A DNA stretch of 64,000 nt from positions 8,782 through 72,781 of the forward strand of contig JAGLUP010000005.1 of assembly GCA_023134715.1 (NCBI GenBank). Reading direction: 5' to 3'. This DNA is from Candidatus Parcubacteria bacterium. GTDB taxonomy: Bacteria > Patescibacteriota > Minisyncoccia > Minisyncoccales > JAGLUP01. Below are positions 4,930 through 60,578 of the stretch, piece by piece. The position numbers and the translations under genes are program-made. Every line of letters starts with the position of its first letter. The stretch's first letter is position 1. The notes beneath the pieces are model-generated. The model searched no databases and was not told where the DNA came from. It was given only the letters and a program-made list of their open reading frames with translations.

Positions 4930-6192
4930 ATGAAAAAGCTAAAAATCATTTTAATTATTATCGCATTAATTTTATTGATTTCAGTTATCGACTCTTCCGA
5001 AGAAAAAAATCCAAGAAACCAACAATATCCAGATACGTCCACTATCCCTTCTTCGCCTAAGCCCTATGATATAAAAACCTGCCTTTATTATTACGGCGAC
5101 GAACTTACTGATTTAAATAATGGAAAAGCGTATAAAATGGCTTCTGGCTATGATCTTTTAATTCTCACAGAAACAGACAGTAAACCGGAAATCATAAATA
5201 AATTAAGAAAAATAAATCCAAACGCAAAAATTATAGTTTACACAAACGCAACTCAATTAGTAAATACTCACAATAAAATTATTAAAGAAAATAATATTTA
5301 TCCCAGCATGCAGAAAATTTTTGAAATGGCTGAAAAAGAAAACAAAAATTGGTTTTTATTAGACAAGCAAAATAATTTTACTTACGCGGCGCACCCATAT
5401 CTTGAAAGCGAATACTATAAAGAATTTATTCCTTACTTAGATATGTGGGTCTTTATGGACCCTTCCTCTGGCTGGGCAAATTATTATGCGAATTACTCAA
5501 AAAATATGATAGGAAATTTGTATGACGGAATCTATTCAGACGTTGCGGTTAATTACGAAGAATTGACGGAAACGATAAACACAAAAGAGTGGAAGCATCA
5601 ATTAAGCGAAAATGAATGGGATAACGCAATGGTAAAAATGCTTAGCAATGTAAATAATGCCATAGGAAAAGATAAATTAACAATTCACAACAATGGCTAT
5701 AATTATTGGATTTCATCTAACGCGTACGACGGACGGCTTTTAGAATGGTGGATGCAATTAGATATGAAAGAGCCAGTTGATGAAAATCTATGGAAACTAT
5801 ATATGGATTCTGCTGAAGAAACAATAAATTCTAAAGGAATCCTCTGCGCCGCGCATTACGGAACCACAGCAGAGCATAGAATGTTTGGACTAACCTCTTT
5901 CCTGCTAATCGCGAATGATGAAAGTTATTATTTTTTTGATGAAGGGGGAGTTGACGCAGAATCAAAATTAGCATGGTATTCAGAATATGAAGCAAAAATT
6001 GGAACACCTTTAAATAATTATTATAAAAAAGACAATACTTATCAAAGAGATTTTTCCAAAGGAAAAATTTTAGTCAATCCAGGCGAGGAAAACATTGATA
6101 TTAAATTCGATAAAGGCTATAAAACATTAGCCGGAGAAATTACAAATGAAATTACCCTAAAATCTAAAACCGGAATAATGCTGTTAAAATAA
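4930..6192 (+). CDS. Membrane-anchored/secreted hypothetical protein, possibly a glycoside-hydrolase-like TIM barrel
   Basis: 420 aa with an N-terminal hydrophobic anchor (KIILIIIALILLISVI). The alternating pattern of short hydrophobic strands and DG/EW motifs is reminiscent of GHL-type families. The family assignment is weak. Confidence 0.5.
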   Translation: MKKLKIILIIIALILLISVIDSSEEKNPRNQQYPDTSTIPSSPKPYDIKTCLYYYGDELTDLNNGKAYKMASGYDLLILTETDSKPEIINKLRKINPNAKIIVYTNATQLVNTHNKIIKENNIYPSMQKIFEMAEKENKNWFLLDKQNNFTYAAHPYLESEYYKEFIPYLDMWVFMDPSSGWANYYANYSKNMIGNLYDGIYSDVAVNYEELTETINTKEWKHQLSENEWDNAMVKMLSNVNNAIGKDKLTIHNNGYNYWISSNAYDGRLLEWWMQLDMKEPVDENLWKLYMDSAEETINSKGILCAAHYGTTAEHRMFGLTSFLLIANDESYYFFDEGGVDAESKLAWYSEYEAKIGTPLNNYYKKDNTYQRDFSKGKILVNPGEENIDIKFDKGYKTLAGEITNEITLKSKTGIMLLK

Positions 6193-9805: not shown

Positions 9806-9806
9806 A

Positions 9807-9834
9807 GTTTAAGGTTTAAGGTTTAAGGTTTAGA
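9807..9834. repeat. Heptamer tandem repeat (GTTTAAG)x3 + GTTTAGA spanning the rplT stop codon
   Basis: Read directly from the sequence: gtttaag gtttaag gtttaag gtttaga. Confidence 0.8.
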
Positions 9835-14223: not shown

Positions 14224-14340
14224 AATTTTTGAATGCGAGAATTCTGGATTTTCTGAGACGCGTAGGGTTCCCCCGTCCCGATAGTTTTCGCCTATCGGGA
14301 CGGAGGGATAAAGCGCGAAGAAAATCCAGATTCGAGCAAT
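14224..14340. repeat. About 110-bp composite palindrome with a GC-rich core; its left 36 nt recur at 26531-26566
   Basis: The inner perfect 12-bp stem is ccgtcccgatag/ctatcgggacgg. The outer imperfect arms are gcgagaattctggattttct / agaaaatccagattcgagc. Positions 14224-14259 match 26531-26566 at 34/36. Confidence 0.75.
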
Positions 14341-14399
14341 GAAAAAATAAATAATTTCCAAAATTTGGTTTTCGGAGTTTTCTATAGCTTAAGTATTTA

Positions 14400-39911: not shown

Positions 39912-39987
39912 GAAGTGTGCGCGTGGATGGATTCGCCCCGTCATCCGACAGGGCACCCAGTTGAATAACTGGGCGAACCATTCCATG
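39912..39987 (-). ncRNA. GC-rich structured 76-nt spacer between two tRNAs (two tetraloop hairpins); identity unknown
   Basis: On the minus strand, H1 is cgcccagtt-attc-aactgggtg (9 bp) and H2 is gccctgtc-ggat-gacggggc (8 bp). The flanks tggaatggttc/gaatccatcca are partly complementary. I could not fit a cloverleaf. Confidence 0.3.
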
Positions 39988-40059
39988 TGGGCATACCAGG
40001 ATTCGAACCTGGAACCACTGACTTATAAGATCAGCGCTCTGCCCTTGAGCTATATGCCC
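39988..40059 (-). tRNA. tRNA-Ile (TAT)
   Basis: Acceptor gggcata/tatgccc, anticodon arm ctgat-ctTATaa-gtcag, T-loop ttcgaat. Confidence 0.8.
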
Positions 40060-43138: not shown

Positions 43139-43280
43139 AAATGAAAAACTGAAAACTAAAAATGAAAAACGACAAAGAAAAATTAAAAAAGATTTTAAAA
43201 ATAATAAATAATAAATAATAAATTAAAAATTTTAGATTTTAGATTGTGATTTTTCATTTTTCATTTTCTATTTTTAATTT
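43139..43280. repeat. AT-rich imperfect inverted repeat (about 34-nt arms) enclosing short tandem heptamers
   Basis: The left arm is aaatgaaaaactgaaaactaaaaatgaaaaacga, and the reverse complement of the right arm is aaattaaaaatagaaaatgaaaaatgaaaaatca (about 27/34). The interior holds (taaataa)x3 and (attttag)x2. Confidence 0.55.
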
Positions 43281-44212: not shown

Positions 44213-46685
44213 TTCTCAAAAATCAAATAAAGAAATCGGCTATATTAAACCGCGGGAAATAGTTGAAGAAATGAAAGAATCATATATTGATTACGCAATG
44301 TCAGTTATTATCGCGCGCGCATTGCCTGATGTTCGCGACGGCTTAAAGCCGGTCCACCGCAGAATTTTATACGCAATGCTCGAAGACGGATTAAGAGCAA
44401 ACGCAAAATTTAGAAAATCAGCAACTGTTGTCGGGTCTGTATTAGGACGTTATCATCCTCACGGCGATATTGCTGTTTATGACGCAATGGCAAGAATGGC
44501 CCAGGATTTTTCGTTAAGATACCCTCTAATCAACGGGCAGGGAAACTGGGGCAGTATTGACGGAGATAATCAGGCCGCTATGCGTTATACCGAAGCAAAA
44601 CTCTCAAAAATTGGCGAAGAAACGCTAAAAGATATTGAAAAAAATACTGTTAATTTCAGAGACAATTATGACGGCACAAGAAAAGAACCGTGCGTTCTGC
44701 CATCGCCGCTTCCTCAACTTCTTTTAAACGGCTCTCTGGGAATCGCTGTTGGAATGGCGACAAATATTCCTCCTCATAATCTCTCTGAAGTGGTAGAAGC
44801 GGTAATACACCTAATTGACAATCCAAAAACAACAACTGAAGATCTTTTCCAATTCATTAAAGGACCTGATTTTCCCTTAGGAGGAATAATTTTTGACAAA
44901 AAAGAAATAATATCCGCTTATTCTCAAGGCAAGGGACCTATTTTAACCAGAGGTAAAGCAGAAATTATAGAAAATAAAACTCATCAACAGCAAATTATTA
45001 TTACTGAGATTCCCTATCAAACCCAAAAATCAAACTTAGTCACTCAAATAGCAAAATTAGTAGAAACGAAAAAACTGGAAGGAATTAAAGATGTCCGAGA
45101 CGAGTCAGATAGAGATGGAATGAGAATTGTTATTGAGCTTAAAACCGGAGCTTATCCTCAAAAAATCTTAAATCGTTTATATAAATTCAGCGACCTTCAA
45201 AAAACTTTTCACCTTAATATGCTTGCCATAGTAGACGGAATCCAGCCAAAAATTCTTTCCCTTGCTGAAATTCTTAATTATTATATTTTACACAGAAAAG
45301 AAGTAATAGTAAGAAGAACTAAATATGAATTAGCAAAAGCAGAAGAAAGAGCGCATATTTTGCAAGGATTAGTTATGGCGCTTGGAAAAATTGACGCGAT
45401 TATCAAAACAATCAAGCAGTCAAAAAACAGAGAAGACGCTCAGAAGAATTTAATCGAAAAATTTAAATTTACCACTATCCAGGCAAACGCTATTCTGGAA
45501 ATCAAGCTTCACTCCTTGGCTAAATTAGAACGTGAAAAACTGGAACAAGAACTTGAAGAGCTTTTGACTAAAATTAAAAAACTCAAGGCGATTCTGAAAG
45601 ACCCTAAAAAAATAAGAAAACTAATGAAAGATGAACTGCAGGAGGTTAAAGAAAGATACGGAGACCAGAGAAGAACTAAAGTGGTTGCTCAAAAAATTGG
45701 AGAAATCGCTGAAGAGGATTTAATTCCTCAAGAAGAAACAATTATTGTTTTAACGCAGGGCGGTTATATTAAAAGAATAAATCCATCTGTTTATAAAATT
45801 CAGAAAAGAGGAGGAAAGGGAATTTTAGGAATGAAAACGCTTCAGGAAGATATTATTGAACATTTTATTTCAGCCAATACTCATGACTCGCTTCTTTTCT
45901 TTACTGACTCAGGAAAAGTTTTCCGAACCTTTGCCTATGAAATTCCTGAAGGCAGTAGAGTGGCAAGAGGAAGAGGGCTTTTAAACTTTTTAGAAATTTC
46001 TCAAGAAGAAAAAGTTCTTTCCTTGATTACTTTAAAAAAAGATGATAAAGAGTTATCAACAAGATATTTAGTAATGCTTACAGAAAATGGTATAATAAAA
46101 AAGACATCTTTGAAAGAATTTGAGAATGTGCGAAGAAACGGGCTTATTGCCATAAAACTAAATAAAGGAGACGCTCTGAAATCTGTAAGGAAAAGCAGTG
46201 GAGAAGATGAGATAATTTTAGCCACAAAAAAAGGACAATCTATCAGATTTAAAGAAAAAGAAATTCGCGCTATGGGACGTCCAACTGCAGGCGTAAAAGC
46301 AATCCGATTAAAAAAAGAAGATAAAGTTGTGGGAATGGACACCATAGAAAGCCCCCGCCAAGAGCGGGGCAAGCAAAACTTAGATAAGAATTATTTATTG
46401 GTGGTTAGTGAAAACGGATATGGAAAGAAAACAGATATTAAAGAATATCGAAAACAAGGCAGAGGAGGTTCGGGAATAAAAACAGCTAACATAACTAAGA
46501 AAACCGGCGAAATTGTCTTTTCTAAAATCATTACGGAAGAAGAAGATTTAATCGTAATCTCCCAACAAGGACAAGTAATAAAAACAAATATTGCGTCTAT
46601 CCCGATTTTAAGCCGCGCCACTCAAGGCGTTAGAATAATGAAGCTTAATGAAAACGATAAAGTCGCATCCGCAACTTGTATTTAA
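44202..46685 (+). CDS. gyrA: DNA gyrase subunit A
   Basis: It has [12 protein letters not shown], the active-site context AAMRYTE, and C-terminal beta-pinwheel repeats. Confidence 0.95.
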
Positions 46686-47291: not shown

Positions 47292-47720
47292 ATGAAAATA
47301 AATAAAAAAATTTTAATAATATTTTTATTTTCTTTTGTTTTCTTAAATGCAGGAACAAGTTCTGTTTTTGCAGTAGAGGAGGCATCAACTTGCAAAGAAT
47401 ACTGCAGTGATCCGTATAACGCGGACACTGATGAGGGCACATACACTGAGCCGGCAGGAAAGGTTTGTATATGCAATCCTTTGCAGGCTACCAGCACTGA
47501 AGCGATAATTAATTCAATTGTCAACTTTATTTTCTGGTTTGGAATGGCGTTAGCGCCTTTAATGATAATTATTGCCGGATTTTTCTTCTTAACTGCTGGC
47601 GGAGATCCAGATAACATAAAAAAAGCGAAAAATATAATTACATGGACATTTGTCGGACTACTTATTATTCTAATGGGTAAAGGACTGATTTCAGCGTTGA
47701 AAAGCGTATTAGGAGGATAG
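47292..47720 (+). CDS. VirB2/TrbC-like (T4SS-type) pilin, paralog 1
   Basis: It has a signal peptide, a 4-Cys ectodomain (CKEYC...CIC), and two TM helices joined by LTAGGDPDNIKKAK. Confidence 0.65.
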   Translation: MKINKKILIIFLFSFVFLNAGTSSVFAVEEASTCKEYCSDPYNADTDEGTYTEPAGKVCICNPLQATSTEAIINSIVNFIFWFGMALAPLMIIIAGFFFLTAGGDPDNIKKAKNIITWTFVGLLIILMGKGLISALKSVLGG

Positions 47721-47726
47721 TTGAAG

Positions 47727-47767
47727 AAAATCCAAAATCCAAAATCCAAATTGTTCCAAATTGTTCC
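47727..47767. repeat. Tandem repeats (AAAATCC)x3 then (AAATTGTTCC)x2
   Basis: Read directly from the intergenic sequence after pilin paralog 1. Confidence 0.85.
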
Positions 47768-47892
47768 AAATCAAATCCAAATTTTAAATTTCCAATTTTA
47801 AAAACAAGAAAAGGTCGAAGATATTAACATTACTAATCTATGAATTCTATTTGTATTATTAGTATGAATTCGTATATTAGTATCGCATTTTT

Positions 47893-48330
47893 ATGAAAAA
47901 GATTTTATCTGTATTAATTTTAGCCGTAGTTTTAACAACATTAGTAGCACCAGCAATGGTTTCCGCCGAAGGCCCAACAGAATGCTGTGAATTAAAAAGG
48001 GATTTTACATTAAATGGAGTAACTTATGACAAAACTGATGTTGTGGGTCCGACAGGCGGAAATTGCGACGTAGCAATAACTGAGACAACAGATGACTGGG
48101 GACTACTTTGTCTTCTTAACACAATTTACGGTATAACTAATCTGATATTTATTATCCTAATGGCTATTTCAGTAATAATGATATTAGCCGGAGGATTTAC
48201 TATTTTAACCGCTGGAGGCAACGCAGAGCAAGTGGGCACAGGAAAAAACTATATAACTTACGCTGTTGTAGGAATAGCAGTCGCGCTTTTAGCAAGAGTA
48301 ATCCCATCTATTGTAGTATACGTCCTGTAG
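47893..48330 (+). CDS. VirB2/TrbC-like (T4SS-type) pilin, paralog 2
   Basis: It has a signal peptide, a Cys-containing ectodomain (ECCELK...C...C), and two TM helices joined by LTAGGNAEQVGTGK. Confidence 0.65.
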   Translation: MKKILSVLILAVVLTTLVAPAMVSAEGPTECCELKRDFTLNGVTYDKTDVVGPTGGNCDVAITETTDDWGLLCLLNTIYGITNLIFIILMAISVIMILAGGFTILTAGGNAEQVGTGKNYITYAVVGIAVALLARVIPSIVVYVL

Positions 48331-48423: not shown

Positions 48424-48465
48424 GGAGACCCGACCTCCTTTGCCAGTGAAGGAGGTCGGGTCTCC
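48424..48465 (+). repeat. GACCCGACC-family hairpin B (15-bp stem, loop tttgccagtgaa)
   Basis: The stem is ggagacccgacctcc ... ggaggtcgggtctcc. The 18-mer aggagacccgacctcctt also occurs inside elp3 at 22447-22464. Confidence 0.8.
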
Positions 48466-48572: not shown

Positions 48573-48602
48573 AGTCTAGACCCGACCTAGACTACTTTTT
48601 TA
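48573..48602 (+). terminator. Terminator after tRNA-Leu (loop acccgac)
   Basis: The stem agtctag/ctagact is followed by acttttttt. Confidence 0.65.
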
Positions 48603-48611
48603 CATATTTAA

Positions 48612-48646
48612 AAAGACCCGACCTTTGGATTTAAGGTCGGGTCTTT
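48612..48646. terminator. GACCCGACC-family hairpin D downstream of hsp20
   Basis: aaagacccgacc-tttggatttaa-ggtcgggtcttt forms a 12-bp stem. Confidence 0.7.
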
Positions 48647-48649
48647 AAT

Positions 48650-49099
48650 TTACTGCTTAACTGATATTTTTCTCTCTTTTTCTCGATGAATTATCGGCAA
48701 TTTAATAGTTAGGATGCCTTTTTTCATAGAAGCGCTGATTTCTTCAGGATTTACTTCTTCAGGTAAAACTATTTTTCTGGAAAATGCTCCCCACCAGCAT
48801 TCTTGATAAAGATATTTCGGCCCGCCCGCGTCGCTCCCGCCGGGTTTTTTTCTCTCGCCCCTTATGGTTATTATATCGTTCTCAATTGAAATATCTAAAT
48901 CCTCTGGCTTAACGCCGGCAACAGGGGACTGAATAACAATTTCTGAATCTGTTTGGAAAACATCAACAACCAGCTGCCCTTCTTTTTTAAACCATTTTTC
49001 CTCGCTTTCCTTCTCTTTCTCTTCTTCCAAATCTAAATCCAATTCTTTTATAGAAATCTCTTTTCCCTTATTTTTTTTTGATTTTTTTAAAAACCCCAT
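48650..49099 (-). CDS. Hsp20/alpha-crystallin family small heat-shock protein
   Basis: It has the alpha-crystallin core DVFQTDSEIVIQSPVAGVKPEDLDISI...GAFSRKIVLPEEV...GILTIKLP. Confidence 0.85.
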   Translation of the reverse strand: MGFLKKSKKNKGKEISIKELDLDLEEEKEKESEEKWFKKEGQLVVDVFQTDSEIVIQSPVAGVKPEDLDISIENDIITIRGERKKPGGSDAGGPKYLYQECWWGAFSRKIVLPEEVNPEEISASMKKGILTIKLPIIHREKERKISVKQ

Positions 49100-49120: not shown

Positions 49121-49843
49121 CTACTCACTAATCTCACAGACGCTCTCCATTTTATTCGCTTTTTTAAACGCAAAGAAAACAAACACGGAAAGAAAAATTA
49201 AAATAATTAAAGGCAAATTAAATTTTAAACTTCCCTCTATTGCTATTATAGAAAAATTATAAAGTCCGTGCAAGAACACGGCTATCCCCAGCCCTAATTT
49301 TCTAATCAAATATTTAAACGTGTTTTTTGGCTCACAAAAAGACAAAGCCAAAAAATAGCCAATCATTCCAGAACATAAAGCGTGCAAAAAAGTGGCTCCC
49401 ACAAATCGAAGAGCGGTAACTCCTAAAACTCCTGCCAACGGCTGAAAAAACATTTCAGGGGAAAATAAAATTAAAATATTCTCTACTGTCGCAAATCCCA
49501 AGGCCGCGATAATCATATAAAGCATAGCGTCCACCGGCTCATCAAATTCTGAATTATTCAACACCTTTTTCTTGACTACTAAATATTTTAAGCCCTCTTC
49601 AACTAAAGCCACACCTATAAAAAAATTTAAAATTAAAGTTGATGTTGAGGAAAAATTTAATACCTTAGTAATTTCAAAAAATCCTTTTTCTAATAAAACA
49701 GCGGGGAAAGTAATCAACATTCCGTAAAAGAAAATTCTTAAAATCATCCTGTTTGATTCTGGATGAACATCTTTTCGCAAAAAATACAAAAGCCAGATTA
49801 TACCGGGAGCCAGGGCGCAAATTAAAAGAGAAAAACCATTCAT
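49121..49843 (-). CDS. PrsW-family intramembrane glutamic/metalloprotease
   Basis: It is polytopic, with EEGLKY and HGLYNF motifs. Confidence 0.7.
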   Translation of the reverse strand: MNGFSLLICALAPGIIWLLYFLRKDVHPESNRMILRIFFYGMLITFPAVLLEKGFFEITKVLNFSSTSTLILNFFIGVALVEEGLKYLVVKKKVLNNSEFDEPVDAMLYMIIAALGFATVENILILFSPEMFFQPLAGVLGVTALRFVGATFLHALCSGMIGYFLALSFCEPKNTFKYLIRKLGLGIAVFLHGLYNFSIIAIEGSLKFNLPLIILIFLSVFVFFAFKKANKMESVCEISE

Positions 49844-50973
49844 ACCTTTAAGTTAGCATTTACTTTAATATTTTTCCAATTTTTTGTTTTTTGGTTTTTA
49901 TGATAATACGCTGTTATGGCTATCATCGCCGCATTGTCAGTGCAGAAAATTTTTGGGGGAACCAAAAATTTTAGTTTGTAGTTTATAGTTTGTAGTTTAT
50001 GGTTAAATTGCCTTCTTAACTCTTTGTTTGCTGTAACGCCACCGCCAAGAATTATAGATTTTGCCTTATATTGTTTAGCGGCTTTAATAGTTTTAAAAAT
50101 TAAAACATCAATTATCGCCTGTTGAATCTCCCGGCACATCTCTTGAATATATTTTTTTGACCTTGCTGTTTTTTCAGGCCGTTTTTTAAAATCATATAAG
50201 ACCGCTGTTTTCAACCCAGAAAAACTAAAATCATAATCCTTGCTATGAAGCATCGGTCTTGGCAACTTAGTTTGTAGTTTATAGTTTATAGTTTGTAGTT
50301 TCGCGGCTTCAGCGGAAATGGCAGGACCACCAGGATAATCTAACCCTAAAATTCTCGCTGTCTTGTCAAAACACTCCCCGGCCGCATCATCCCTTGTTTC
50401 TCCTAAAATTTTATACTTTCCAATTCCCTTCATTAAAATCAACTGCGTATGCCCGCCGCTTACCACTAAACATATCGCAGGGAATAAGTATTTTGTATTT
50501 TGCCCGCCCGCATCGCTACGCGAAGCGTTGCGGGCGGGGATTTTGATATCTGGTGGCAACCAATTAGCAAGTATGTGCGCTTCTATATGGTTAACTGGAA
50601 TAATCGGCAAATCCCATAAACAAGAAAGCTCTTTAGCAAAATTCACTCCCACCCATAAACACGGCTCTAATCCTGGACCTATCGTCACCGCAACCGCGTC
50701 AATATTTGGTTTTCTGAACTTTGATAATTTGGCTTTTCCTAATGCTTTTTTCAAAACTGGCTCTAAATTTTTCTGGTGTTCTCTTATCGCCATAGTCGGG
50801 TAAATTCCGCCATATTTCTTATGGATTTCAGCTTGAGAAGAAACAATATTGCTTAAAATTTTTACTTTTTGCTTATTAATCTCTAATACGGCAACGCAGG
50901 TATCATCGCAGGATGTTTCAATAGCTAAAATTTTCATTGCTCTTATTTTATCATTTGACTTGATTTTTTTCAA
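49840..50973 (-). CDS. tsaD: tRNA N6-adenosine threonylcarbamoyltransferase TsaD (with three in-frame repeat insertions)
   Basis: It has [33 protein letters not shown] and [10 protein letters not shown] motifs. Confidence 0.9.
   Translation of the reverse strand: [377 protein letters not shown]
49972..49999. repeat. Heptamer tandem repeat (TAGTTTR)x4 inside tsaD
   Basis: The repeat reads tagtttg tagttta tagtttg tagttta. On the coding strand it reads KLQTINYKL. Confidence 0.9.
50268..50302. repeat. Heptamer tandem repeat (TAGTTTN)x5 inside tsaD
   Basis: The repeat reads tagtttg tagttta tagttta tagtttg tagtttc. On the coding strand it reads [11 protein letters not shown]. Confidence 0.9.
50502..50539. 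repeat. GC-rich palindromic mini-element in-frame in tsaD
   Basis: The sequence is gcccgcccgcatcgct-acgcga-agcgttgcgggcgggg, with 15-nt arms complementary at 14/15. Confidence 0.85.
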
Positions 50974-53957: not shown

Positions 53958-54029
53958 GCCCCTGTAGCTTAATGGATAGAGTACTGGGCTTCGGACCCAG
54001 TGGTGCGAGTTCGACTCTTGCCAGGGGCA
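53958..54029 (+). tRNA. tRNA-Arg (TCG)
   Basis: Acceptor gcccctg/caggggc, anticodon arm ctggg-ctTCGga-cccag, T-loop ttcgact. Confidence 0.9.
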
Positions 54030-54050
54030 CAAAAAACTGTTATCATAAAA

Positions 54051-54683
54051 ATGATTATGGCAAAAAAAATTAAAATCTTTTTTTTAATCCTGATTTTTGG
54101 GAGTTTTGTTTTCAGTCCTTTAATATCTTTGGCAGCTAATCAATATTCAGTTGAAGGAGGCACAGTAAGCTATGAAGGAATAGTGCCCTGCGGCAAGCCG
54201 ATAGAACTCAACGGAACTTGCTGTATTCTTCCCTGCACTCTCTGCCATTTTTTTGTAATGTTTGAGCAGATAATAAACTTTTTTATGCTTACCCTTGTAC
54301 CGGCGATTGCGGTTCTAATGATAGTAATTGGCGGACTTATATTTCTTTTATCCGGACAAAATCCAAGCGGAATAGACCAGGGAAAAAGAATTATGACTTC
54401 AACAGCAAAAGGATTAGTAATAATTTTCGCGTCCTGGCTGATTATTAACACTTTTTTCGTATATATTAAAGCGGCCAGCTGGACAGGACTATCAAGTGGC
54501 TGGTTTCAAATTAAATGCGGGATAACAACTAATGATTGTGACCCAAGAAGAAAATGCAATCCTCCAATTATTACTACCGATTGTTGTTTGGGCAGCTGCT
54601 GTAAAGACCTGCCAAGCGGCACGACACCATGCGCCACTTTTCACTCAAATGGCGACCAAGTATCAGACGCTGAATGCCAATAA
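54051..54683 (+). CDS. VirB2/TrbC-like (T4SS-type) pilin, paralog 3, with about 60-aa Cys-rich C-terminal extension
   Basis: The start is re-set because the 54000 start overlaps tRNA-Arg. It has a signal peptide, CGKP...CCILPCTLCHFF, and two TM helices joined by LSGQNPSGIDQGK. The tail holds 10 Cys (KCGITTNDCDPRRKCNPPIITTDCCLGSCCKDLPSGTTPCATF...ECQ). Confidence 0.65.
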   Translation: MIMAKKIKIFFLILIFGSFVFSPLISLAANQYSVEGGTVSYEGIVPCGKPIELNGTCCILPCTLCHFFVMFEQIINFFMLTLVPAIAVLMIVIGGLIFLLSGQNPSGIDQGKRIMTSTAKGLVIIFASWLIINTFFVYIKAASWTGLSSGWFQIKCGITTNDCDPRRKCNPPIITTDCCLGSCCKDLPSGTTPCATFHSNGDQVSDAECQ

Positions 54684-57171: not shown

Positions 57172-59084
57172 ACAAAGAAAAATTAGAATTCTTAAAAAGA
57201 GCGGAGATTAGAACAATGGAAAAAGACATTGCCCGATTTCGGGAAGAAGAAGCGCAAAAAGCTCGAGAAAAATTAACTACTAAAGAACCCGTTGAAATTC
57301 CTGCGAAGACTGAAGAAGACAAGCATGTAGCTATCCCGCGAAGTGAAACTATAGCGAGCGAAGAAGAAAAAATCAAAGAAGAGAAACAAATAGCTGAAGA
57401 AATTGAAAAAAAATGGCTTAAGGAAAAAGCAGAATTAGAACAAAAAAAAGCTGAAGCAGAAGAAAGAAAAAAAATATTGGAAAATCAGAAAGAACCAATA
57501 GAAACAAAAAAAAATGATTTATTAAAACAACTAGAACAACTCAAGCAAACCCTTGAGCCAATTTTAATAAAAGAAAAAGAAATTGAACAAAGGAGAAAAG
57601 AAATTGAAGAAAAAGAGCGACTCACTGTTTCTTTTGAACAAAAACGGAAAATTGAAAAACAAAGATGGCAGGTTGAAGATGAAATAAAGGAAACAGAAAA
57701 ACAAAGATGGCAGGTTGAAGATGAAATTGAAAAAATAAAGCAGGAAATAAAAAAATATATTTTAGAAGAACAAAAAATCTTAAAAGAAAAGGTTCTGATA
57801 AAAGAAAAAAAAGATACATTAAAAAAACAGCTTCAAGAAATTGAAGAAAAAGTAGAGCCTCTAAAATTAAAACTGAACGAAATTTTAGAAAAAGAAAAAG
57901 AGTTAAAACAAGAAATTGAGAATGTGGACAAACCCGCCGAAAGTCCTCCTGCCCGCAATGCAAGCGATGCAGGCGGGGCAAGCATTCAAGCGAGCAGTCC
58001 TGAGCAAATTCCAGAACCTCAGCCAGATGCTGATCCGCCTTTGGCGGAAACGCCTAAGCCTGCTACTCAGAGTCCAGAGGACGATGAAGTAGTCCCGCCT
58101 ACTGGCGGGGAGCCAGAACCTCAGATTAAAGAACCCCCAAAATACGAACAACCACCTGAAATAAAACAAATAAGAGCAACGCTAGAAGAAGTTCAAAAAA
58201 GAGAAGAAGAAGAAAGAGGACGATTCTTAAGAAAAATTGAAGAAACAGATATTGAAGACGAGCCAGCCGAAAGTCCAAGTATCCAGGAAAGCGAGCCCGC
58301 AAAAGTGGTTTTCAGACATCTCCCACAAAAACCCCGCCTTCTTGAAAAAATCTGGATTAGATTTATAATCTTAATTGTTATTTTCTTAATTTTGGCAAGT
58401 ATTTTCACTTTTTGGTACTGGTATTTTGAAATAAAATCCCCTCAAGATTCTAAATCGTCAACTCCAGAAGAAATAATGGAATCAAGAGTAGTCATCCCTC
58501 CAGAATCTTTAATTTCAGTTGAGACAATAAAAATTTTTGAAATAAATTCCGACGAACAAACAGTTGACGTTTTTGAACGAGCAATAAAAGAAAACCTGTC
58601 AAAAGGATTCATTAGAATTATAATTAAAAATCAAACAGAAAATAAAATTTTAGGATTAAAAGAATTTTTTGAAAATTTCCAGATTAAAGCGCCTGAAAAC
58701 TTTGAGCAAAAATTAAATAATGATTTTACCTTGTTTATTTATTCTTCAGAAAATAATAACTTCGGCTTTACGGCTGAAATAACACCCGCCGAAAGTCCTG
58801 CGGACAATCAGGCGGACAGGGAGAATTTAAAAGAAATAATGCTTTCTTGGGAGGAAACCATTAAAAAAGACCTTGAACCCCTTTTGTTTGTTTTAGCTGA
58901 AAACAAGGATTTAACTCCTTCTCATGCCTTTAAACAAGCATCCCATAAAGAAGCAGATTTTCGTTATATTAGTTTTTTAGAAGAAGATTTAGGAATTTGT
59001 TATAGTATTTTTGACAATTATTTTATTCTTACTTTTTCGGGCGATACAATAATAAAAACTATAGATAATATAAAAAATAAATAA
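57168..59084 (+). CDS. Large coiled-coil / Pro-rich / single-TM hypothetical protein
   Basis: 638 aa, ATGA-coupled to pnp. It has an EK-rich coiled coil with a 39-nt tandem duplication (EKQRWQVEDEI x2), a GC-rich Pro/Ala region, a TM helix (IWIRFIILIVIFLILASIFTFWYWYF), and a C-terminal domain of about 220 aa. Confidence 0.7.
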   Translation: MNKEKLEFLKRAEIRTMEKDIARFREEEAQKAREKLTTKEPVEIPAKTEEDKHVAIPRSETIASEEEKIKEEKQIAEEIEKKWLKEKAELEQKKAEAEERKKILENQKEPIETKKNDLLKQLEQLKQTLEPILIKEKEIEQRRKEIEEKERLTVSFEQKRKIEKQRWQVEDEIKETEKQRWQVEDEIEKIKQEIKKYILEEQKILKEKVLIKEKKDTLKKQLQEIEEKVEPLKLKLNEILEKEKELKQEIENVDKPAESPPARNASDAGGASIQASSPEQIPEPQPDADPPLAETPKPATQSPEDDEVVPPTGGEPEPQIKEPPKYEQPPEIKQIRATLEEVQKREEEERGRFLRKIEETDIEDEPAESPSIQESEPAKVVFRHLPQKPRLLEKIWIRFIILIVIFLILASIFTFWYWYFEIKSPQDSKSSTPEEIMESRVVIPPESLISVETIKIFEINSDEQTVDVFERAIKENLSKGFIRIIIKNQTENKILGLKEFFENFQIKAPENFEQKLNNDFTLFIYSSENNNFGFTAEITPAESPADNQADRENLKEIMLSWEETIKKDLEPLLFVLAENKDLTPSHAFKQASHKEADFRYISFLEEDLGICYSIFDNYFILTFSGDTIIKTIDNIKNK

Positions 59085-59558: not shown

Positions 59559-60578
59559 CTATTGAGCAAACGGATTGCGAGCCCCCCGAACCTCAAAATG
59601 AAGATGGCATCCCAAAGATCCAGAAGGAATAGTATAACCGCTATGCCCCATATAGCCAATAATTTCTCCTTGAGAAACTTCTTGCCCAGACGCAGTAATT
59701 ATCTTTGAGAGATGACCATAAAAAGTAACCACTTCATTCGGATGAATAATTCTTATATAACTGCCAGCTATTCTATGATAACCTGTTTTTTGAACTACAC
59801 CGCTCGCAGCCGCTAAAATTGGTTCGCCGCAGCTCACTCCTTCATGACTAAAATCAATTGCGTTATAAAGGTGCAGTCCTTGAGTAATTCGGCAGGGAGG
59901 AAGAATGGGACAAATAAAATAACTTGAAGCAATCGGCGTGGTATATGCCGCGCTATAAACAATTTTTGGTTTTACGCCATTAGGAATAACTAAAACATCG
60001 CCGATAAAAATCTCTGCTCCAGACAAATTGTTAGCAGTAATAACCTCGCTGACGTCTCCCTTATAGTCTTGGACAACCTGACTTAGGGTGTCGCCTGATT
60101 TCACTAAATGCATTATTCCGGAAACCGGCAAAATAAGCAATTTTTGCCCGGGCTTAATTACAGAATTTTTACTCAAATTATTTGCCCAAAGCAATGTCTC
60201 AAGAGTAATTTCAAACTTAGAAGTAATGGTAGAAAGAGTGTCTCCCTGCTCAATAATATATTCAACAATTTCTTCTCTCTCTAAAAAAGAATCATCCATG
60301 CCCAAACCGGCCAAAACCTTAGAAGAAACAAGTGTATAGGGAGCAGCCCCGAGCAAACTGTTGCTCTGGGCTAAACATAAATCAGAAAACCCTTGAGCCG
60401 CTGGAAAAGATGATTGCTGAACTCCAATCGCCCAATAAGAACTGCTTACTTCTTTGCCAACAAAAACAGGGCTTTCCTGCCCGCCTCGCCAAACGGCGGG
60501 TTTGTCAGAAACCCCGCAAATTAAAACAATTAATCCTATTAAAAAAACAAGTTTTTTAATTCTACTCATATACCCCAT
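59559..60578 (-). CDS. Secreted LysM x2 + M23 family metallopeptidase (peptidoglycan hydrolase)
   Basis: The two LysM domains are YIIEQGDTLSTITSKF...PGQKLLILP and HLVKSGDTLSQVV...GDVLVIP. The M23 motifs are HLYNAIDF and GHSGYT...HLHFEVR. Confidence 0.85.
   Translation of the reverse strand: MGYMSRIKKLVFLIGLIVLICGVSDKPAVWRGGQESPVFVGKEVSSSYWAIGVQQSSFPAAQGFSDLCLAQSNSLLGAAPYTLVSSKVLAGLGMDDSFLEREEIVEYIIEQGDTLSTITSKFEITLETLLWANNLSKNSVIKPGQKLLILPVSGIMHLVKSGDTLSQVVQDYKGDVSEVITANNLSGAEIFIGDVLVIPNGVKPKIVYSAAYTTPIASSYFICPILPPCRITQGLHLYNAIDFSHEGVSCGEPILAAASGVVQKTGYHRIAGSYIRIIHPNEVVTFYGHLSKIITASGQEVSQGEIIGYMGHSGYTIPSGSLGCHLHFEVRGARNPFAQ

Follow-up and report, generated by a model that had tools for sequence, protein, structure and literature searches.

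Repetitive extragenic palindromic (REP) elements are described as imperfect GC-rich palindromes of 20-40 bp, which are mostly extragenic, often clustered or in tandem, and in some cases intragenic and in frame (PMC3733652). In the same account, they are defined by an unpaired GTAG or CGTC tetranucleotide at one terminus, generate no target-site duplication and are thought to move via single-strand hairpins with a dedicated enzyme, whose gene is flanked by the repeats (PMC3733652). Rickettsia palindromic elements (RPEs) are presented as selfish palindromic repeats located in frame in conserved protein genes, to which they add a tolerated peptide (Ogata et al., 2000, as cited in PMC3184786). They are given as about 105-146 bp long and confined to Rickettsia (PMC3184786), and those of R. 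conorii are reported to end in CGTC (PMC3733652). Bacterial miniature inverted-repeat transposable elements (MITEs) such as Correia, Nezha and BOX are summarized as non-autonomous, with terminal inverted repeats, able to form hairpins and to fuse to or sit in open reading frames (ORFs) (PMC3184786). Coding palindromes are also reported from mitochondrial genes of Nematomorpha (PMC6649704). Here, we analyse a GC-rich palindrome of 36 nt that lies in frame in the tsaD gene of a Candidatus Parcubacteria bacterium, within a stretch of 64,000 nt (contig JAGLUP010000005.1, positions 8,782 to 72,781), hereafter called the window. It belongs to a family of repeats with sharp borders, is absent from orthologues of its host gene and is accompanied by no target-site duplication; family copies in coding DNA have lengths that are multiples of three (3n) and favour one reading frame. 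The palindrome is, in our judgement, quite probably a copy of a very small non-autonomous element that multiplies at the DNA level and is kept in a loop of TsaD.

The palindrome and its place in tsaD

The following features of the window define the locus.

49840-50973, minus strand: tsaD, the host gene, identified by its ORF, database identity, domain and structure match
50503-50538, minus strand: full 36-nt palindromic element, in frame in tsaD, recognized by its fold, its absence from homologues and identical 36-mers elsewhere
50488-50502, strand unspecified: heptanucleotide repeat GTATTTT x 2.1 (as written on the plus strand), read as QNTKY and abutting the element

The ORF at 49840-50973 is 100% identical to an NCBI TsaD entry, contains PF00814 and has solved TsaD structures among its matches (E = 1e-69). 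The form annotated at NCBI has 365 aa and starts 12 codons downstream of TTG, and the insert-bearing protein is on record from three contigs (sources NCBI, ENA and nr). Read on the minus strand from 50538 to 50503, the 36 nt are CCCGCCCGCAACGCT-TCGCGT-AGCGATGCGGGCGGG. An earlier reading of the window's letters (the original prediction) had proposed a GC-rich palindrome translated in frame within tsaD, with arms complementary at 14 of 15 positions. Sequence, ORF and reading frame agree with it, and the complementarity is reproduced on the minus strand, with a single A/A mismatch; the limits given there, 50502-50539, were not exact, the element proper being 50503-50538. Folding, suggested at that time as a check, indicates a very stable structure: either strand as RNA gives a hairpin of 10+4 bp at -29.8 kcal/mol (z = -5.35), a stability that no sequence among 200 shuffles attains.

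The composition of the element is atypical of its surroundings. Coding DNA of the host had been described as AT-rich and is so, the GC content of the window being 29-38%, and GC at third codon positions is 0.75 in the element vs 0.27 genome-wide. Several of its codons are rare in this genome, for instance TCG, which makes up 5.5% of serine codons, CGT and CGC, each used for ~10% of arginines, and GGG and CCC, with shares of ~13% among glycine and proline codons. Neither strand of the palindrome was called as a rho-independent terminator in a terminator scan, the tails being CAAAAUAC and GAUUUUGA. Searches of Rfam 15 returned chance-level matches to the element (E-values >= 0.79, none at the gathering threshold), and no Rfam family other than tRNA was matched in the element-bearing loci described below.

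The 12 encoded residues fall between HIEAHI and SGGHT of TsaD, and alignment of TsaD sequences confirms the placement between HIEAHI and SGGHTQL that had been proposed. The comparison set comprised 120 listed homologues from the Candidate Phyla Radiation (CPR), that is the window's own protein and 119 others. The stretch from HIEAH to SGGHT ranges from 28 to 57 residues in this set, and neither PARNAS nor SDAGG occurs in any of the 119 other homologues listed. An alignment with T. maritima TsaD opens a gap of 19 residues opposite the insert segment. These absences, together with the atypical codons, argue for insertion rather than ancestry. Comparison of orthologues had been suggested as a check of the original prediction and speaks in its favour, for a syntenic relative (P0009), with the gene order TsaD-PrsW-Hsp20, has the same linker backbone without the 36 nt. 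Its linker DNA reads GAT ACT AAA TAC AAA ATA | CAA AAT ACT AAA TAC, and that of the window GAT ATC AAA ATC [36 nt] CAA AAT ACA AAA TAC. In an AlphaFold model of TsaD built from 56 sequences (pLDDT 80.2, pTM 0.80), residues 132-151, which comprise the insert and QNTKYL, have a pLDDT < 50 and are modelled as coil; the HIEAH-bearing helix 117-126 precedes them and strand 154-160 follows. The low pLDDT and the variation in linker length place the insert in a predicted disordered, length-variable loop.

The heptamer repeat at 50488-50502 is part of a heptamer-repeat backbone of the linker. The TsaD linker backbone is peptide read from heptanucleotide tandem repeats (e.g. NFQFSIFNFQ, NSKFQIPNSK, and one from an A-rich 7-nt unit), an origin deduced from the peptides and checked at the DNA level in five tsaD genes. 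AT-rich heptanucleotide tandem repeats with differing units are found at 2119-2148, 9806-9832, 43139-43280, 47726-47802, 49972-49998, 50268-50301 and 50488-50502. Period 7 is enriched in the window, with 5 arrays of at least 3 copies vs 0.07 expected, and no such arrays exist at periods 6 or 8-12. The arrays are placed in coding DNA and just 5' of genes; two of them within tsaD each encode KLQTINYKL, and some hairpin elements are embedded in heptamer arrays.

Gain of hairpins in this gene can be followed between close relatives. Two sister samples, P0016 and P0067, have tsaD alleles with 99.2% identity across 1065 nt (98.9% in the upstream genes), and the allele alignment contains only two gaps, both of them insertions in P0067, of 36 and 63 nt. 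The first insert, placed in the linker, is a GC-rich hairpin of 36 nt (CCCCGAAGG...GGGGCAGG) without target-site duplication. The second (locus L004) consists of a 59-nt MITE and a duplicated TGAA. The terminal inverted repeats of this MITE (CCCCGTTAGAGGT / ACCTCTAACGGGG) are perfect over 13 bp, and its duplication comprises 4 bp (TAAA or TGAA); the same family is present in the linker of P0003 (L003, about 5413-5472), with TAAA on both sides, and thus occurs in frame at two different places of tsaD in two organisms. The linker of P0017 (L188) carries mini-hairpins, CCCGCCGCAGCGGG and the 15-nt CCCGCCCGAGGCGGG (PARGG), at the same position as the window's element; the 15-nt hairpin may be an internally deleted copy of the 36-mer family, or this linker site may be an insertion hotspot. 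Taken together, the two insertions in P0067 and the hairpins of P0003 and P0017 indicate, as far as sequence comparison can tell, that short GC-rich hairpin elements come and go in the TsaD loop.

A repeat family of uncultivated bacteria

Further copies and putative relatives were found in the window.

57948-57977, plus strand: family member of 30 nt, without the 6 central nt, translated in the frame of ORF 57168 as PARNASDAGG
48818-48844, minus strand: partial, degenerate copy (right arm AGCGACGCGGGCGGG and GGCGGG), translated as GGSDAGG in the hsp20 variable loop
60476-60500, minus strand: degenerate or truncated relative (CCCGCC-9 nt-GGCGGGCAGG) in ORF 59559-60578, in a different frame, PAVWRGGQ
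58094-58109, plus strand: mini-hairpin CCCGCC-TACT-GGCGGG with the family's terminal hexamers, within ORF 57168
46353-46369, plus strand: GC-rich mini-hairpin CCCCGCCAAGAGCGGGG of the same general class, in gyrA (C-terminal part)

The 15-mer of the right arm has five matches in the window at up to 3 mismatches, vs 0.29 expected, and no shuffle reached five. In two of these a single position differs: the match in hsp20 (48821-48835, minus strand) and that in ORF 57168 (57963-57977, plus strand). All three right-arm copies, including that of tsaD, are read as SDAGG. The left arm is found again at 57948-57962 in ORF 57168, with 3 mismatches, and is read as PARNAS. The original prediction had listed the recurrence of the right arm at 14/15 in hsp20 and ORF 57168, the SDAGG reading in three unrelated proteins and the second left arm, and had proposed a search for motif excess over shuffles; positions and translations agree, and the excess is strong. 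For hsp20, the right-arm match stands and a full, foldable inserted copy does not, this copy being partial, replacing residues and forming no hairpin (z = +0.9). The copy at 57948-57977 is 1 nt away from a 30-nt variant of Verrucomicrobia-type genomes. The mini-hairpin at 58094-58109, to which the 15-nt hairpin of the P0017 linker is similar, may be an internally deleted copy, and the membership of the gyrA mini-hairpin is uncertain.

Beyond the window, a degenerate two-arm pattern (14 + 14 specified bases) was scanned against 185,579 species genomes, in collections to which the source genome does not belong, with a central gap of 1-7 nt that puts the 36-nt class outside the reach of the scan. 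It returned 55 loci, ~20 of which lie in genomes labelled as CPR groups, with small AT-rich genomes (Saccharibacteria, Levybacteria, Roizmanbacteria, Gottesmanbacteria, Komeilibacteria, Moranbacteria, Parcubacteria and Paceibacterota). One Saccharibacteria genome has at least 9 contigs with the element. Other loci were labelled Verrucomicrobia, Udaeobacter, Kiritimatiellia, Bdellovibrionales and Elarobacter, or came from low-GC assemblies labelled Gammaproteobacteria. The palindromes matched in GC-rich isolates (Kribbella, Streptomyces and others) are perfect but have other interiors, and they are probably unrelated to the family. When metagenomes were scanned with the same pattern and a gap of up to 9 nt, a sample biased to the 36-37-nt class, at least 120 contigs matched, and all of those listed have copies of that class. 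Six predicted viral contigs carry the element, and no match to it was found in PLSDB plasmids or INPHARED phages. The dispersed family of mini-elements that had been proposed is supported, and it is far wider than proposed.

After deduplication, loci of up to 60% GC provided 158 copies, of which 157 could be oriented. The commonest forms are CCTGCCCGCAATGCTACGCATAGCGTTGCAGGCGGG (24 times) and CCTGCCCGCAATGCTTCGCATAGCGATGCAGGCGGG (17 times), and the exact 36-mer of the window accounts for 8 of the 157 copies. It recurs, e.g., in a valyl-tRNA synthetase (ValRS), and the loci that hold it span 34% to 62% GC. Copies measure 30-37 nt, and the variants are a few bases apart. Similarity ends sharply at the borders, CCYGCC...GGCRGG, beyond which the flanks are unrelated. 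Judged by these sequences, the family appears near-invariant, spread over many uncultivated lineages and not specific to the source genome. Intergenic copies form head-to-tail arrays and composite repeat modules, and are tandem or clustered in L040, L041, L059 and L099. Some intergenic regions of Saccharibacteria (L030 1-100, L043 1100-1300 and L059 2500-2700) are mosaics of short tandem and inverted repeats, with modules such as AATTTTCAATTGAAAATT, runs of GTCCCCGTGAA/GGGGAAC and CTCGAAACTTCGCTTCTCGAC units, among which the 36-mer is another module. Searches of the searchable literature with the arms and peptides of the element, and for CPR with MITE or palindrome terms, returned no description of it, the peptide search being swamped by unrelated words. 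No paper pairing miniature inverted-repeat with CPR taxa was found there either.

Coding copies follow a distinct pattern. In loci of up to 50% GC, 33 of 116 copies (~30%) lie inside ORFs of at least 150 codons, and ~70% lie outside long ORFs. The host genes, assigned by reading translations, encode ValRS, AlaRS, LysRS, ClpB, CTP synthase, class II ribonucleotide reductase, TrxB, IscS, LepA, BipA, MetH, ribosomal proteins L15 and L7/L12, TsaE and an MraY-like transferase. In ValRS, the window's exact 36-mer is read as 12 residues that split TLGW|P. Coding copies of 3n length measure 36 or 30 nt (n = 29), and 20 of them are read in one of five stop-free frames, PARNA[ST]xS[DV]AGG (P = 1.6e-8). 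Four copies of other lengths (32-37 nt) had been scored as coding, and all of them lie in repeat clusters or between tRNA genes; non-3n copies in real genes are effectively 0 of 28. Length and frame bias together look like the pattern expected from selection for translatability. A hairpin repeat that survives in ORFs by staying in frame, as originally proposed, matches this coding subset, and most copies elsewhere are intergenic.

How does this family compare with described classes of repeats? Like REP elements, it is short (30-37 nt), lies for ~70% outside long ORFs, forms clusters and lacks target-site duplication. Unlike them, it has neither the terminal tag nor a nearby REP-associated tyrosine transposase (RAYT), and its recurrent neighbour is a GIY-YIG nuclease. 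Of 157 copies, 11 have GTAG/CTAC and 5 have CGTC/GACG no more than 6 nt from a terminus; GTAG, where present, is located in the central loop. A jackhmmer search of 1.28 Mb of loci with an IS200 TnpA query found one IS200-like ORF, at a distance of 5 kb from the element. Moreover, the family is nearly unchanged across phyla, whereas REP elements are species-specific, and its coding copies show a strong bias for a single frame.

The resemblance to RPEs put forward in the original prediction extends to behaviour and not to membership. As with RPEs, a palindrome lies in frame in tsaD and in ~30 conserved genes elsewhere, its retention in the product being predicted. Nevertheless, the element has 36 nt rather than about 105-146 nt, shows no terminal CGTC or GTAG, and is hosted by CPR, Verrucomicrobia and other bacteria, and is thus set apart from the descriptions of RPEs by size, tag and host. 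It also differs from MITEs, since it has no core between its arms and no target-site duplication, which was absent from copies of the 36-mer at any offset for lengths of 2 to 7 nt. Typical MITEs are larger than the 36-mer; a genuine one is present in tsaD of relatives, namely the 59-nt element with its 13-bp terminal inverted repeats and 4-bp duplication. A duplication of 7 bp was considered, as the left and right 7-mers are equal in 12 of 158 copies (control 0.5), and was rejected. Only copies inside heptamer arrays are concerned, about 5-8% of copies, and there periodicity alone suffices to explain the signal.

In yeast mitochondria, GC clusters are known as in-frame insertions in var1. Both these clusters and the palindromes of Nematomorpha are, like the present element, short and GC-rich and invade a very AT-rich genome, coding sequence included. 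They differ in being organellar, lineage-restricted and unrelated in sequence and size, and we know of no nuclease gene associated with either. Given the outcome for terminal tag, RAYT, size and target-site duplication, the 36-mer is not, on these features, a classical REP, RPE or MITE.

A GIY-YIG nuclease gene beside the palindromes

When the 150 ORFs within 600 nt of a copy were clustered all against all, only one cluster had more than two members, a protein of ~80-90 aa with a confirmed GIY-YIG domain (PF01541, E = 1e-13 to 1e-16). Jackhmmer found 16 such ORFs in all loci, 15 of them in element-bearing loci. Ten of these 15 genes lie within 300 nt of an element, vs a mean of 4.9 under random placement (P = 0.002). 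The genes are found in cassettes at the following positions of their loci.

L008 1410-1775: GIY-YIG cassette, 5' tRNA-fragment form
L090 125-414: GIY-YIG cassette, 5' tRNA-fragment form
L114 608-934: GIY-YIG cassette, 5' tRNA-fragment form
L140 3152-3448: GIY-YIG cassette, 5' tRNA-fragment form
L100 38-473: GIY-YIG cassette, 3' mirror version
L059 2470-3300: GIY-YIG cassette with palindrome pairs on both sides of the gene

In L008, L090, L114 and L140, the palindrome interrupts the D-arm of a 5' tRNA fragment, after which come the GIY-YIG ORF and then an intact tRNA. Cassettes without the 36-mer (L126, L084 and L023) have shorter hairpins of the CCCGCC...GGCGGG type at the same place. This layout accounts for copies that seem to lie in tRNA D-loops (L028, L042 and L074). 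Copies in D- or T-arms (L028, L042, L074, L100 and L114) had also been considered as tRNA introns or tolerated inserts, an idea that was abandoned, as deletion of the element restored 0 tRNAs in 185 cases. The apparent in-tRNA copies in fact lie in orphan tRNA fragments, with intact tRNAs next to them, in the surroundings of GIY-YIG ORFs. In appearance, the cassettes, each with its duplicated 5' or 3' tRNA fragment split by a GC-rich hairpin, resemble minimal mobile cassettes that target tRNA genes.

The element is probably mobile, and several steps of its life may be suggested. It would have inserted into a heptamer-repeat tract encoding a surface loop of TsaD, where its 3n length and the absence of stops in the frame used would have favoured retention. 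The encoded 12-mer is hydrophilic and rich in Gly, Ser and Ala, and a disordered loop could carry it; most likely, the segment is transcribed and translated within TsaD and is neutral or nearly so. A hairpin or cruciform may be what is recognized, to judge from the absence of target-site duplication and from the imperfect yet conserved stem, and spread may involve such a single-stranded hairpin or cruciform intermediate, recognized in trans by a nuclease. The best candidate for this role would be the small stand-alone GIY-YIG enzyme, whose tRNA-linked cassettes carry the palindrome or a shorter CCCGCC...GGCGGG hairpin, and we tentatively propose it as a mobilizer linked to the element. More speculative still is the idea that the 36-mer is the non-autonomous partner of an unrecognized mobile system, in which a tRNA-resident GIY-YIG cassette would mobilize CCCGCC...GGCGGG hairpins across phyla, with heptamer repeats as hotspots or footprints. 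Such a system would follow the logic of a REPtron with an enzyme of a different superfamily.

Competing explanations and significance

Several observations weigh against the reading of the palindrome as a mobile element kept in frame. The closest TsaD relative is only 71% identical, and no pair of near-identical genomes was found in which the 36-mer family itself is present and absent at one site. The hsp20 copy replaces RTPENK of the syntenic relative (net +6 nt) and is not a clean insertion. The GIY-YIG association comprises 15 genes, many on short contigs, which explains the high null (mean 4.9 of 15), and the 64-kb window holds no GIY-YIG gene. Translation of the TsaD segment is a prediction from sequence. 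Finally, a purely selfish repeat would not usually stay near-invariant across phyla, and its constancy could indicate function.

This last point leads to the strongest rival, which we nonetheless consider improbable, namely that the palindrome is a functional nucleic-acid module (for RNA processing or stability, a translational pause, or as a protein-binding or nuclease-recognition site) maintained by the host or by another system. Extreme conservation across lineages, which extends to the stem mismatches T.G and C.A in the common form, would be expected of such a module, as would the great stability of the hairpin and its fixed place beside the start of the GIY-YIG ORF in tRNA-linked cassettes. 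However, copies are scattered over positions in proteins and intergenic DNA with unrelated flanks, orthologues do without the element, and partial and internally deleted copies decay. Moreover, the palindrome is terminator-like on neither strand and belongs to no Rfam family.

It is very unlikely that the segment is removed or bypassed after transcription, in the manner of an intron or by translational bypass, to give a TsaD without the 12 residues. Copies within highly conserved motifs (TLGW|P of ValRS) and tRNA-like sequences, and the strong hairpin with its defined borders, may bring such a process to mind. Yet removal would need no 3n length, no stop-free reading and no preferred frame, and the coding copies have all three, which argues against excision at the RNA level. 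Nor do the in-tRNA copies help, as they lie in orphan 5' or 3' fragments next to intact tRNAs, and deletion of the element restored no tRNA.

A protein motif, SDAGG/PARNAS, selected independently in several proteins would account for the recurrence of one peptide in three proteins of the window and in numerous others, in each case within a loop or linker. This explanation is effectively refuted. Identity extends to the DNA, including synonymous positions and codons rare in the source genome, ~70% of copies lie outside long ORFs and some are in other frames; these intergenic and other-frame copies, with the synonymous-site identity and the atypical codons, rule out convergence, and palindromic symmetry is meaningless at the protein level. 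Least credible of all is an artefact of assembly or sequencing, or a local origin de novo by template switching: matches of the asymmetric type do all come from metagenome-assembled genomes or metagenomes (0 from isolates, PLSDB or INPHARED), but the insert-bearing TsaD is present on 3 contigs, many projects and assemblers contributed the long contigs (up to 5 Mb) in which in-frame copies lie, and hairpins formed de novo would not share one sequence across loci.

If confirmed, the mobile palindrome would represent a very widespread, undescribed bacterial repeat family, hidden by its occurrence in uncultivated lineages, and to our knowledge the smallest element to colonize essential genes in frame. 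It would account for part of the odd length variation and of the GC-rich low-complexity inserts in CPR proteins, with consequences for gene calling, including spurious ORFs such as PACNAMRSIAGR, and for alignment-based phylogeny. It could also serve as a natural marker for horizontal exchange and strain-level variation and, in protein engineering, would show which loops of essential enzymes tolerate a 12-residue insertion. The GIY-YIG link would give a testable role to an abundant family of uncharacterized nucleases, and, if the proposed system is true, a fixed 12-residue peptide would be written into essential proteins across phyla of uncultivated bacteria.

Other features of the window are of separate interest. 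Three intergenic hairpins around tRNA-Leu (48424-48465, 48573-48593 and 48612-48646), one of them called terminator-like, have a common core, GACCCGACCT, and constitute a separate small repeat family. At 14230-14345, a long GC-rich nested hairpin (CCCCCGTCCCGATAG...CTATCGGGACGGAGGG inside CTGGATTTTCT...AGAAAATCCAG) without a match in Rfam occupies an intergenic gap of 230 nt and may be an unannotated small RNA. ARAGORN called a tRNA-Ile with anticodon UAU (tat) at 39987-40059; this tRNA is uncommon in bacteria, where AUA is usually decoded by a modified CAU tRNA. The T4SS_pilin family (PF18895) is represented by three small proteins, secreted or transmembrane, encoded at 47292-47720, 47893-48330 and 54000-54683, and heptamer-repeat tracts lie 5' of two of these three genes.

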